DNA of 64,000 nucleotides from positions 50,902,001 through 50,966,000 of the forward strand of contig OX597824.1 of assembly GCA_951406725.2 (NCBI GenBank). Reading direction: 5' to 3'. This document shows positions 10,666-55,537 of this stretch, piece after piece. Numbering within the stretch: the first letter of the stretch is position 1; each line of letters opens with the position of its first letter. Below the pieces are notes generated by a model. That model did not search any database, was not told the origin of the DNA, and saw nothing but the letters and a program-made list of their open reading frames with translations. A program made the translations under genes and the position numbers. Origin of the DNA: Octopus vulgaris (Eukaryota).

Positions 10666-10858
10666 GGGAGAGTTTACGAAAAAAACAAAAGACGAAGACA
10701 GGTGGTTATAAAACAAACAGATGTATTAGTATAACGCTCAGGAATAGAAAAAAGTATTTTACGTTTCGAACCTACGCTCTTCTACAGAAAGGGACACAGA
10801 AAAAAATAAGGAGAGAAAAAATGTGTGTAGTGGCTAACTATCTATCAAGGGGACTCAT
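10666..10858 (-). mobile_element. ~200 bp HHR-bearing repeat (PLE terminal-repeat-like) in a (TA)n array
   Basis: Reverse complement of 19523-19730; HHR-like motif at 10756-10791; (TA)n on both sides. Confidence 0.7.
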
Positions 10859-10939
10859 ATATATATATATATATATATGTGTGTGTGTGTGTGTGTGTGT
10901 GTGTGTGTGTGTTTATGTATATATATAAATAAAATAAAA

Positions 10940-11228
10940 TAAAAATGCACACACGTTATATAGTTTTGATATATTTTTTCAATATATTTTATATAGTGTT
11001 TGTCGACCGATTTCGCTTTCGCTAATCATGACATTGAAATTATTATAATTTCGTATTTACTTAAGAAGATTTTAGTTCATTTTATGTGCGGAGTTCATGA
11101 ATTAATGATTAAACAAGTAGAAAAATCTAAGGGGAGGTAATTGGTGGTCGTTATTATTGGGGAAAGGGGAGGTAATTGTTCATCTTTCGGGGAAGGGATA
11201 AATATACACAGAAACTCAAAAGCTAAAG
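10940..11228 (-). mobile_element. Solo 3' terminal repeat of the PLE family at 49.6-52.8 kb
   Basis: Aligns by eye with 49633-49905 (tgtttgtcgacc...ctaatcatgacattgaaat...tctaaggggaggtaattgg...tcatctttcgggga). Confidence 0.8.
11001..11033 (-). ncRNA. Minimal type-I hammerhead ribozyme, A3-U8 core variant
   Basis: Reverse complement reads TGTC ATGATTA GC-GAAA-GC GAAA TCGG TC GACA. Confidence 0.6.
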
Positions 11229-11229
11229 A

Positions 11230-11467
11230 GGTCCCAAATGATGAAAAAATTAATATGAGAGGTATAGAAAGAATAGCAAAGTACCAGGACCTGGCCATTG
11301 AATTACAGAGGCTATGGAAAATGGGGGTAAAATGTATCCCAGTAAGTATAGGTGCATTGGGAACTATCCCTAAATATCTCTACAGATGGATAGAGGAAAT
11401 GGGCATAAAACCCAGTTTAGCACAGCTCCAGAGAACAAAGTTATTAAAGACAACTAGGATACTAAAG
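11230..11467 (+). mobile_element. R4/Dong-like LINE 3' fragment (RLE domain end)
   Basis: VPNDEKINMRGIERIAKYQDLAIELQRLWKMGVKCIPVSIGALGTIP, an RLE C-terminal motif. Confidence 0.8.
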
Positions 11468-11599
11468 ATACTATTATTATTATCATCATCATTATTATTA
11501 TTATTATTATTATTATTATTATTATTATTATTATTATTATTATTATTATTATTATTATTATTATTATTATCATCATCATCATCATCATCGTCATCATTA

Positions 11600-12360
11600 T
11601 TATTTCACTAGGGCCGACATATAGGGACGATACATTAGACATGGACAGTGGGGATTTTACACAGAAACAACGATTACACAATCGTGTAACAAAAGAATAT
11701 AATAATGAAAGTTCCCCAATAGGGGTGGAAGGTAACCACCTGGAGTTGGCTCAGGTACCCCACCAATCCTGAATCACTCGACGCTTCGAGGGTTTCTGGG
11801 AAGAACAACCTTCTCAAATACACTAGCCTACAGGCGCATTATAAGAGTAGATTCACTTACACGTACCATTTTTGCTTCGTTCATCCACCTTTTAGAAAAT
11901 GTACTGGGAGGCAGCACTTCTCTCTTCCACCCTCATCTTCCTTTCCAAATTAAATTTGAAAGAATTAGATGACCCTAAGCGGTTGGTCCAGGTCTACACT
12001 GGCTCATTAGGGAAATGTCGTCAGTACCTGTCAAACAGTTGGGACTGGCTGTTCAGGTGCTTGAAGCTTTTGCACCCCTCTCTTCTATCAGCTACTCCTA
12101 CACAATCCCAGAATTGATCCAAGATTCCGTTCCAGTCCCCTACTAACAGTAAAGGGCGAGACGTACATAGAAAGTCTTCCAGACGCCTAAAGAAAGCTGT
12201 CTGATTGGCTACGGTAGGATCGTAGACGACCACCTTCACTGTTGCTGACGTTCAGAACCACCAACTTTCCGTTCGGGTCCCGGAAGATCGACTTTACCTC
12301 GAGATCCAGTTCTTTTCTAAACAGCATTGCCACTCCACCTTCCATTCCCGGCCGACTAAC
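11600..12360 (-). mobile_element. L1/Tx1-like LINE remnant (APE endonuclease fragment)
   Basis: Minus-strand GVAMLFRKELDLEVKSIFRDPNGKLVVLNV and VYDPTVANQTAFFRRLEDFL...LLLVGDWNGILD, with the APE motifs GVA and GDWN. Left boundary uncertain. Confidence 0.7.
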
Positions 12361-12419
12361 AGATGCTGTTAGTGTTTCTGCTACTATTGTTGTTACTGCT
12401 CATCAAAGAGCCAAGGTGT

Positions 12420-52735: not shown

Positions 52736-53004
52736 AACACAAAATGAAATATATTAAAAAGTACATATTAAAACTATGTAAATTGTGTGAATTTTGCTTT
52801 TTATTATATATACATACATACATATATATATATATATATATATATATATATATATATATATATATATATATATATATATATATATATATATATATATATA
52901 TATATATATATTCATATATGTATACATACATACATACATACATACATACATATATATATATATATATATATATATATATATATATATATATATATATATA
53001 TATA

Positions 53005-54367
53005 TGATGGCTGCCCCCTCGTTATCGAGTATGGTCATTGCACGAAGCTTAACTGTTATCGGTGCAGTGATCGAATGTGACTTTTACGAGGGGCGTTCAA
53101 TAAGTAATGCCCCTGACCCACTTCCCATAGCAGTAGAGCAACGAAACTTGGTGGCACAGTTATTATTCTTTTTCTACATAGGAACCACCCAGAGTTACGC
53201 ATTTCTCCCATTGCTTGATGCAGCTCTGGAGACCGTTTTTGTAGAAGATCCCAGCTTGGTCCTCCAACCTGAACGTGACTTCAGAAATCAAGGCTGCATC
53301 ATCTGGGAAACGCTTTCCTTTCAAAAACAACTTCATGACTGGGAAGAGGTGAAAATCAGAGGGTGCAAGGTCAGGAAAGTAGGGGGATGGGGGAGGTGTT
53401 CATAGCCATACGCCTGTGCTTCTGATCTGGCGACAAGCGAGTTGTGGACCGGAGCGTTGTCCAGCAGGAGGAGGATGCCTTTGCTGATCTTGCCCCACAT
53501 CTTTTACAAGGTCATATGATGGGGCATCATCACCATAAGTTACTTTCATTTCATCAAAAGTCTCCCGTGGTGTGCGTCCTTTCAAATACAAAAACCGGAT
53601 CACTGCTCGACACTCAACAGGCTCCATTTCACACTTGACTCGGTTCAAACACCTGTAAATCAGAAACCACAATAAATTCAGAGCTGTAATTTGCCACTTA
53701 CTCTATAGAGATATAAATGATTGCACATTTCAAAATTTCAGCTAGATCAAACAACTGCAAGTGGGTCAGAGGCATTACTTATTGAACGTCCCTCGTATTT
53801 GCTTTTTAAGGCTACAGCCAGTCATTCAGTTGAGACTCAAGGTACTATCAACAATCATGAACAATGTTGTTATCGTGCAATGCCTGTGCAAGAAGATTCT
53901 TTTTAAAATGAGGAAAGGCTGTGCACTGAGTCGATCCCACTCACTAAACTACAACAGCCATAATCCGTAAAGAAGAACAAGTCAACATCATCGGTAACCA
54001 CCGAGCTGCAGGTTTTATTTTGGAGTCATCCCAGTTACCTGAGTTACCTTCTCCTAGAAGGATGCCCTAACAAAGGCTAGGAGTTCTTCACTCTCAATGG
54101 TTTAACCGCGCGATCGGGTATTCAGTCCGATTATTTCTATGTCCCTGCGCATAATACAGCCTTAAGACATTTATTGGATGGCCGTTGACTCTCAAGTGTT
54201 CCTCCACCCTCTGACGGGTTTTGTTTTTCATCCCGCAGGGTGTCCAATAAACACCCTCCTCACCAAGCAAGTTTGGTGGGATTGCCGGTTTATTTGCCGA
54301 CGACCCGACCATGCAACAAGTTGTACTGGTTTACATGCTACCAGTAGCACTCGAAAGTGACCTGACA
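53005..54367 (-). mobile_element. RTE-like non-autonomous retroelement interrupted by a mariner
   Basis: Minus-strand ttgttagggcatccttctaggagaaggtaactc resembles RTE 5' UTR motifs; the 3' end ctcgataacgagggggcagccatc abuts (TA)n; multi-hairpin 5' end. Family assignment is from recalled motif similarity only. Confidence 0.45.
53087..53795 (-). mobile_element. Internally deleted mariner with both TIRs and TA target duplication
   Basis: TA|cgaggggcgttcaataagtaatgcccctgacccac ... gtgggtcagaggcattacttattgaacgtccctcg|TA. N-terminal MEPVECRAVIRFLYLKG is fused to LLLDNAPVH...[11 protein letters not shown]. Confidence 0.95.
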
Positions 54368-54760
54368 TAATATATATATATATATATATATATATATATA
54401 TATATTACATTACAACTCACCACGTGGGGATAATCGAAATTCCACCCTTTGTGTTACTACTATATATATATATATATATATATATATATGCATATATATA
54501 TATATATATAAGTGTGTGTGTGTGTGTGTGTGTGTTTGTGTGTCTATATAATACTAATAGTAGGGAATACAATTCCAAAACTTACAATTTAACAATTTTA
54601 AATCAAATTTCACAATATATAATATATGTAAGTTAGAGAAAAACCACTATTAATTAATTTCAATAAAGAAAGATGTTATTCACACCATATAGAAAACATA
54701 TACTATAAAAAACCTTATTTTAAATCAATAAAGTACAATAAATAGTAAATAGTAGTAAAA

Positions 54761-54880
54761 AGACTACGCAAGTTTCATGGCTACATTTTCAAACAGATAA
54801 TAATGATAAAATCAATTCGATTCAAAAATAAATTGAACTAAAATTAATTCTATTTAAAAATATAGTCATTCATCAGGTTT
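54761..54880 (-). ncRNA. Hammerhead ribozyme with canonical core and very long stem II
   Basis: Reverse complement: AAAC CTGATGA ATGACTATATTTTTAAATAGA...TCTGTTTGAAAATGTAGCCAT GAAA CTTGCG TA GTCT. Confidence 0.65.
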
Positions 54881-55151
54881 AAGATAATTAATAATAGTAA
54901 ATAATAAGAGAATAAATGTACTTATCGTAACTTATACTAATTATCAAATAAATATTAAAACTAATATTTTAAGAAAAGAGTTAACAAAAATCCTTCGTAA
55001 AGATAAGTTATATTTTCATTTTAAGAAAGATTGCTGAATGCTTTTCGATTATTTATAGTTAATACACGTATTTTTATATATTTATTTGATAAGCAGTATA
55101 AGTTAAGATAAGTACATTTATTCTATTATTTTTATTATTATTTATTATCTT

Positions 55152-55271
55152 AAACCTGATGAGTGACTATATTTTTAAATAGAATTAATTTTAGTTCAAT
55201 TTAATTTTGAATCGAATTGATTTTATTATTATTATCTATTTGAAAATGTAGCCATGAAACGTGCATAGTCT
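55152..55271 (+). ncRNA. Hammerhead ribozyme, sister copy with long stem II
   Basis: AAAC CTGATGA GTGACTATATTTT...AAAATGTAGCCAT GAAA CGTGCA TA GTCT. Confidence 0.6.
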
Positions 55272-55502
55272 TTTTACTACTATTTACTATTTATTGTTCT
55301 TTATTGATTTAAAATGAGGTTTTTTTTATAGTATATGTTTTCTATACGGTGTGAATAACATGTTTCATTATTGAATTACTTAATAGTGTTTTTTCTTTAA
55401 ATTATGTACATACATATATATCATTCAAAATGTGACCGCGTGTGTACCGTTGGCGATTTTTTTCCCTCTGTCTTCCCTTCTCTGGATCTTTCCTTTCCCT
55501 AT

Positions 55503-55537
55503 GTTTCCGACGAAGAGCTCCGCTCGAAACGTTAAAC
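55503..55537 (+). ncRNA. Minimal hammerhead-like motif (CCGACGA core) in a ~210 bp repeat (55425-55640)
   Basis: GTTT CCGACGA A GAGC-TCC-GCTC GAAA CG TT AAAC; downstream cctgagcgt is shared with the 19523 family. Confidence 0.55.

Follow-up and report, generated by a model that had tools for sequence, protein, structure and literature searches.

Hammerhead motifs with divergent family cores in the pseudo-LTRs of probable Penelope-like elements of Octopus vulgaris

Ten hammerhead ribozyme (HHR) motifs in a 64,000-nucleotide stretch of the Octopus vulgaris genome (GenBank assembly GCA_951406725.2, contig OX597824.1, positions 50,902,001 to 50,966,000, forward strand; hereafter the window) are very probably minimal type I hammerheads in the 3' pseudo-long terminal repeats (pLTRs) of several families of Penelope-like elements (PLEs) and of their likely non-autonomous derivatives, and the single copies are predicted to be inert. 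Inherited changes at normally fixed core letters occur in four families: A6U in family A, A3-U8 in family B and U4C in families D and F. The motifs, their carrier and the general phenomenon are known; new here are the family-wide non-consensus cores. The window has 35% GC and is rich in microsatellites, and the source genome comprises 2.8 Gb.

All ten motifs of a preliminary description of the window are present, each at its position and on its strand, with the core and the stem III palindrome ascribed to it. Self-comparison of the window and genome searches sorted them into six repeat families, in agreement with the at least five or six proposed: A (10756-, 19600+), B (11001-, 49681-, 52703+), C (31563+), D (44392+), E (54761-, 55152+) and F (55503+). 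They represent eight insertions, since two of these hold a motif in either inverted arm (49681/52703 and 54761/55152). The repeats had been called unrelated; they probably belong instead to one retroelement superfamily, within which A and F are kin. The features of the window are the following.

10756..10791, minus strand: family A hammerhead, core CUGUAGA (A6U), extra A after A9, CG stem III, in a ~200-nt 5'-truncated pLTR stub (about 10666-10860)
11001..11033, minus strand: family B hammerhead, core AUGAUUA (A3-U8), 2-bp stem II, CCGG-derived stem III, in a ~310-nt stub (about 10921-11228)
19600..19635, plus strand: family A hammerhead, in a stub (19522-19728) flanked by (TA)n tracts
27602..27772, plus strand: family G stub, a 135-bp palindrome with a 36-nt one-sided tail (27737-27772), holding the 3' half of a U3-A8 hammerhead cut within stem II
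28536..28872, plus strand: family H stub with inverted arm, truncated in stem II with no core left (the family hammerhead is canonical, CUGAUGA, CCAUGG)
31246..31746, plus strand: family C pLTR stub, sharing 97% identity with that of a near-full-length element
31563..31603, plus strand: family C hammerhead, core UUGACAA (U3-A8), extra A beside GAAA, CCGG stem III, identical at 25/25 loci
38036..38128, plus strand: old and decayed hammerhead-like motif, CUGAUGA, long stem II, weak stem I, few detectable relatives
44160..44650, plus strand: family D element, 348-nt unit, partial tandem repeat, inverted 5' arm, open reading frame (ORF) not found
44392..44436, plus strand: family D hammerhead, decayed copy, unpaired A on either side of stem II, CCGCGG stem III (family majority CCGAGGA, U4C)
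44703..44868, plus strand: palindromic stub with one-sided tail, likely the 3' half of a further hammerhead family
49575..52851, minus strand: single family B insertion with 3' pLTR (49575-49974), broken reverse transcriptase (RT) and GIY-YIG coding sequence (49987-52356) and inverted pLTR arm (52401-52851)
49681..49713, minus strand: family B hammerhead, broken (A14C, 10.1-11.1 pair lost)
52703..52735, plus strand: family B hammerhead in the inverted arm of the 49575..52851 insertion
54615..55421, no strand assigned: single family E insertion, two pLTR stubs head to head, arms 85% identical
54761..54880, minus strand: family E hammerhead, canonical CUGAUGA, 93-nt stem II, decayed CGCGCG-like stem III
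55152..55271, plus strand: family E hammerhead in the other arm of 54615..55421
55503..55537, plus strand: family F hammerhead, core CCGACGA (U4C), CG stem III, in a ~215-nt element (55425-55640) related to family A, ORF not found

The link to PLE ORFs proposed in the preliminary description holds for five families, since RT and GIY-YIG sequence lies upstream of the motif in A, B, C, E and H. A near-full-length family C element (L161/L162) consists of a pLTR, a 339-amino-acid frame, a 753-amino-acid RT/GIY-YIG frame and an inverted truncated copy ending in a pLTR. In Pfam the longer frame matches RVT_1 at E=1e-7, above the cut-off, and GIY-YIG at E=0.0015, below the curated cut-off. Copies of family C are 98-100% identical, so the family is probably still or was recently mobile. 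At L161:5704-9478 the element occupies two frames, with single-base indels relative to contigs of other runs. When the L161/L162 protein was searched against the window by tblastn, it matched 49987-52356 on the minus strand at 34-75% identity; this match adjoins the 49681 motif directly upstream and thus places family B coding sequence in the window, where other repeats interrupt it at about 51188-51980. PLE coding sequence was likewise found upstream in 22/36 profile matches of family B. Among 30 family A loci chosen on their upstream flank, six share at least 1.4 kb upstream with RT-thumb, CxxxxCxxC and GIY-YIG motifs. Family E is represented by a broken element of ~2.9 kb (L166, L167) with a CxCX5C linker and GIY-YIG-like motifs, and family H matches the E protein pieces at E values of 1e-9 to 1e-11. 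By motifs only, the CX2-5CxxC linker before GIY-YIG in the A, B and C translations is the mark of Neptune, and the CxCX5C linker in an element of less than 3 kb that of Hydra, which applies to E and, through similarity to E only, to H. Families D and F look non-autonomous from their sequence: D has a 348-nt period with partial tandem and inverted copies, and F is a 215-nt element with a fixed 5' end.

The view that the motifs are chance matches picked by eye in repeat- and palindrome-rich DNA retains next to no probability, and for the ten main motifs it is already refuted. A relaxed descriptor, drafted before the families were known, gave 9 matches in the window as compared to a mean of 2.8 in 120 shuffles (three sets of 40; maxima 6, 6 and 8). 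Seven of the nine are listed sites and three listed sites were missed; the other two lie in a duplicated long interspersed nuclear element (LINE) and are likely due to chance. About three random matches per shuffled window are indeed what a proponent of chance would point to, together with the sites at 38037 and 44757, which remain weak. A stricter descriptor gave 6 matches versus none in 60 shuffles, a circular result as it was tuned on the variants in the window. In independent sequence, a genome sample of 999,800 bases made up of 10-kb stretches (100 in all, taken at round-number positions of contigs C1-C29), the stricter descriptor found 36 matches and none in each of six local dinucleotide shuffles, far more than chance would give. 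Moreover, family majorities suit the fold better than single copies do, the motifs are located in pLTRs, and their pairs covary.

By core, the 36 matches comprise 15 canonical, 8 U3-A8, 7 C4, 6 U6 and no A3-U8 hammerheads; seven of the 36 come from one tandem array. At L227:3082-4512 and on the opposite strand, a tandem array of ~359-bp units carries seven canonical hammerheads (CUGACGA, CCGG), a retrozyme-like family outside the window, and L228, L249, L281, L318, L319, L339 and L346 contain at least six more hammerhead families of the 1-Mb sample, none of them in the window. Profiles of the eight window families (the six above and G and H, described below) gave 58 matches in the sample (A 20, F 19, D 12, G 3, H 2, B 1, C 1, E 0), as compared to none in reversed sequence. 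Only 19 of these 58 copies pass the strict descriptor. Descriptor and profiles combined give 75 motifs, or one per 13 kb, and the descriptor alone one per 28 kb, instead of the one per 6 kb previously suggested. The window, with 6 descriptor matches as compared to 2.3 expected from the sample, is two to four times as rich as the genome sampled, in part an effect of its having served to build the tools. Extrapolation yields 100,000-210,000 motifs in the genome. Rfam hammerhead families at gathering threshold had no match in nine loci, and an Rfam E-value scan of the window showed no hammerhead among the 150 matches listed of 445, which are dominated by microsatellite matches to microRNA models. 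Of the large and largely unannotated reservoir that had been suggested, the abundance (in the order of 100,000-200,000) and the escape from Rfam at gathering scores stand; the possible cutting of host transcripts finds no support.

Are the unusual cores mere decay? Majority sequences were derived from the 24-30 best loci per family, including the window copy (for C, D and E one locus each was fetched twice). They read CUGUAGA plus A with a 4-bp stem II and CG stem III in A; AUGAUUA with a 2-bp stem II and CCGG in B; UUGACAA with the extra A beside GAAA and CCGG in C; CCGAGGA with an unpaired A on each side of stem II and CCGCGG in D; CUGAUGA with the 93-nt stem II in E; and CCGACGA with CG in F. 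All 11 core bases equal the majority in 26/30 copies of A, 22/30 of B, 25/25 of C, 2/25 of D, 22/25 of E, 24/25 of F, 20/24 of G and 16/24 of H. As the core bases are shared across copies, the odd cores are inherited family states, except for CUGAAGA at 44392, which is a decay product of the majority CCGAGGA in a copy whose first stem I pair is also mismatched. A second correction concerns 49681 on the minus strand, where A14C breaks GAAA and the 10.1-11.1 pair is broken as well. A sister of family C at L190:1-1490 (88% protein identity) has the same U3-A8 core and the extra A beside GAAA, which is therefore conserved between subfamilies.

The consensus core of PLE minimal HHRs (min-HHRs), CUGANGA or the published variant UUGANAA, is shared by the canonical families E and H and by C and G (U3-A8), and it fails in A (U6), B (A3-U8), and D and F (C4). 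The 3-8 pair is Watson-Crick in all eight majorities (C-G in five, U-A in two, A-U in one). All eight also have GAAA (in C with one extra A), A15.1-U16.1, a palindromic stem III and H17, and they keep G5, G8 where it is paired with C3, G12, A13, A14, the 15.1-16.1 pair and a non-G at position 17. Compensatory changes back stems I and II. In an alignment of the D superfamily (13 rows, nine chosen by motif pattern and four by hand), 7/11 pairs are changed on both sides, with a 3-8 pair of CG in eight rows, UA in four and UG in one. A hand-picked alignment of A and F (16 rows) is paired in 98.8% of cells, and 1/10 pairs is compensatory, a CG to GC swap in stem I. The shuffle control for this covariation is weakened by related and pattern-picked rows. 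Family H was left out of the pair counts, as a subfamily indel displaces its stem II. Cofolding of homodimers was mixed, with a dimeric hammerhead for some copies and alternative folds for others. In A and F, a short segment 15-25 nt downstream of the motif that is complementary to the 3' strand of stem II is kept and could form an alternative pairing.

These cores raise the possibility that the fold serves the elements as a non-catalytic signal, in RT binding, template choice or RNA packaging, with catalysis optional and A6U, U4C and A3-U8 thereby free to spread. We regard this as conceivable yet rather less probable than its contrary. Matches to A-like profiles are the commonest in the sample (20/58); in 64 copies, U6 is fixed while any of the four bases may occur at position 7 (A 41, C 9, G 8, T 6). 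Family F with its U4C is young (copies 96-98% identical) and accounts for 19/58 matches, and the stems remain paired across subfamilies. Catalytic mutants of the anole PLE hammerhead still inserted in vitro (PMC11167929), and in a pairwise mutant scan, changes in the CUGA turn other than G3-C8 gave low activity (PMC9901934). Speaking for catalysis, the bases and pairs kept in all eight majorities are those that catalysis would need, and natural U4C and A6C variants, from a viroid and a phage respectively, have low but real activity (PMC3088659). Few repeats in the sample are as abundant as the A6U and U4C families. Conceivably, though with less than even probability, the genome thus holds a natural allelic series: cores with a broken CUGA turn (A6U, U4C) or an exchanged 3-8 pair (A3-U8) would have become fixed in successful families, the fold being kept as a protein-binding or template signal and cleavage being optional. 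A6U and U4C families are predicted to be slow or non-cutting; weak activity is predicted for A3-U8 and U3-A8, which keep the 3-8 pair.

The reading as PLE pLTR hammerheads also accounts for the insertion pattern. The reported association with TA repeats is borne out, as 24/31 sampled copies lie beside (TA)n versus 14% of control positions. Combinations of a pLTR with an inverted 5'-truncated copy occur at L161/L162, L170 and L171 and in the window at 49575-52851, 54615-55421 and 27602-27772. One-sided tails are optional, 30-40 nt long, and were seen at 27737-27772 and in only some B copies. Together with the (TA)n targets they match the PLE insertion pattern described in PMC8557442 and PMC11167929. 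At 54405-54460, a 55-nt piece between TA tracts matches only the 3' tail of some family B copies and is an extremely truncated insertion. A small family C stub (30660-30775) lies within an inverted duplication at 30205-31246, in which ~420 bp of flanking DNA are repeated (314/316 bases match in the arms outside microsatellites) and which borders on the young C pLTR at 31246. This has the appearance of a PLE insertion that copied adjoining host DNA in inverted orientation.

By analogy to other PLEs, the GIY-YIG domain would nick AT-rich DNA and the RT would copy element RNA from its 3' end, usually stopping early and leaving stubs of 100-500 nt with a 3' hammerhead and often a flipped second arm. 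Many stubs keep the hammerhead because it sits 100-250 nt from the 3' end. The fold is likely kept by selection on master elements, as pairs covary between subfamilies, and not by selection on dispersed copies, which decay through CpG loss. Such motifs reportedly require dimerisation or the protein of the element, and cutting would likely occur, if at all, only under these conditions, so that scattered single copies are predicted to be inert. Of 30 H copies selected solely by the segment that follows the cleavage site, 27 continue for at least 35 nt through this site and none starts exactly at it, and of 78 D matches, the 35 that start internally include none beginning within 5 nt of it. These starts indicate that most templates were uncut at the 3' hammerhead, as reported for the anole PLE (PMC11167929).

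Several observations weigh against the reading proposed here. Pfam recognised neither the E nor the H protein pieces. The search for linked ORFs gave one weak match in 60 for D and 0/56 for F, and the match for G belonged to a neighbouring element; for D, F, G and the 44757 stub, for which neither an ORF link nor a long copy was recovered, PLE origin rests on architecture and kinship. The choice by motif pattern of nine of the 13 rows in the D alignment favours structure. In top-hit alignments, 40/2026 (2.0%) non-CpG cells of the core have diverged as compared to 964/23164 (4.2%) of the flank, which could mean selection on dispersed copies; seed bias, indel-rich flanks and subfamily structure can equally give such a difference. 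Finally, three of the 30 H copies have their start close to the cleavage site (two at 6-7 nt downstream, one at a few nt upstream), and some templates may thus have been cleaved.

The preliminary description also suggested that the motifs cut host intronic transcripts. No host gene was found among the frames of the window that were scanned, and the window has no intact pair of the same family on the same strand. That the dispersed copies form an active ribozyme reservoir cutting host pre-mRNA, with some copies kept by the host, is improbable in our view, although at one motif per 13-28 kb long introns would hold several copies, 15/36 descriptor matches have the canonical core and a few have 6-nt palindromes, and the core is slightly more conserved than the flank. 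When 150 of 162 candidate frames from unmasked, unique stretches were compared to Pfam, a scan that short exons would escape, no host exon appeared, only mariner helix-turn-helix remnants and one weak match to a domain of unknown function. Stem III is a palindrome of 2-6 nt and needs a partner copy. The only same-family, same-strand pair in the window (B, 11001/49681) is 39 kb apart with one member broken, and the inverted arms of E and B would pair with their own antisense. The low proportion of sampled copies passing the strict descriptor argues in the same direction, and frog retrozymes are reported to be under-represented in introns (bioRxiv 10.64898/2026.07.22.740005). Contigs of presumed-RNA runs over window positions 46760-52800 and L161 revealed no splice joints or pile-ups; such contigs show neither ends nor strand.

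The half-motifs formerly noted at 27673 and ~28678 proved to be truncated copies of the complete hammerheads of families G (UUGACAA, with U.U at the base of stem II) and H. Both window copies are 5'-truncated inside stem II, each with an inverted arm. For the half-motif at ~44757 the evidence is divided: among the loci fetched, one 97%-identical palindromic copy extends into a UGAAGA core, but the motif stays weak, and a genome search with the stub was blank even for the window's own copy and is thus uninformative. For the weaker motif at 38037, four distant relatives were found in which a 13-bp stem II is conserved and stem I is poor; by its sequence we consider this motif old, decayed and hammerhead-like. 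A reading of it with G17 was dropped, as a CGCGCG-derived palindrome followed by UA suits the five copies better.

Other repeats were found in the window. Two copies of a non-LTR element (14048-16534 and 22488-25889), 90-97% identical and with RVT_1 and zf-RVT matches, lie in (AAT)n tracts; the element resembles the R4/Dong type. A mariner-type transposase remnant occupies 26563-27186 (PF17906 at 26584-26829), and a second, seen by translation only, lies at about 53400-53700.

Solo min-HHRs in PLE pLTRs have been described by Cervera and De la Pena in 2014 (PMC4209133), who reported 2,000-9,000 per genome, with inactive monomers and weakly active dimers. The octopus motifs agree with these in type I topology, short stem I, palindromic or absent stem III loop, an extra base after A9 (here in A, D and F), the U3-A8 variant (here in C and G), a presence as thousands of mostly single copies in several families, and opposite-strand pairs 100-700 bp apart. 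The Acropora Neptune row in Fig. S3 of that paper has the same layout as A and F. A3-U8, C4 and U6 are absent from the rows compared, which are part of this figure. Further differences are the 2-bp stem II of B, the 93-nt stem II of E, the extra A beside GAAA in C and a density above the range reported. Among PLE clades, A, B and C are placed in the endonuclease-containing Neptune clade (PMC8557442) by the linker motif alone. Family E resembles Hydra-clade PLEs, of which the CxCX5C linker is the mark (Craig et al. 2021, PMC8557442), in length (~2.9 kb), linker, (TA)n target and canonical core, and the H protein pieces match E; it differs in having only broken ORFs here and a very long stem II. 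Family D is similar to metazoan non-LTR retrozymes (PMC7229834; bioRxiv 10.64898/2026.07.22.740005) in its 348-nt non-coding unit, within their 150-450 nt, its type I hammerhead and its partial tandem and inverted copies. Unlike these, D has a U4C majority core, mostly one or two units and no long arrays, and it is known here from DNA alone. Our literature search, with subscription papers mostly outside its coverage, retrieved no natural A3-U8 or A6U core and no study devoted to PLE hammerheads of cephalopods; such cores may be listed by Lunse et al. (PMC5785218) or in the supplements of Craig et al.

A hidden host-regulatory ribozyme reservoir thus finds little support, and abundant solo min-HHRs were described before. 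The PLE hammerhead is near-universal in these elements and cuts poorly, and one whose cleavage is protein-assisted was dispensable for insertion in vitro (PMC11167929). In the octopus, families with canonical cores (E, H) coexist with compensated ones (B, C, G) and turn-breaking ones (A, D, F), one family being very young, and they constitute a panel for asking whether cleavage matters to the spread of PLEs.

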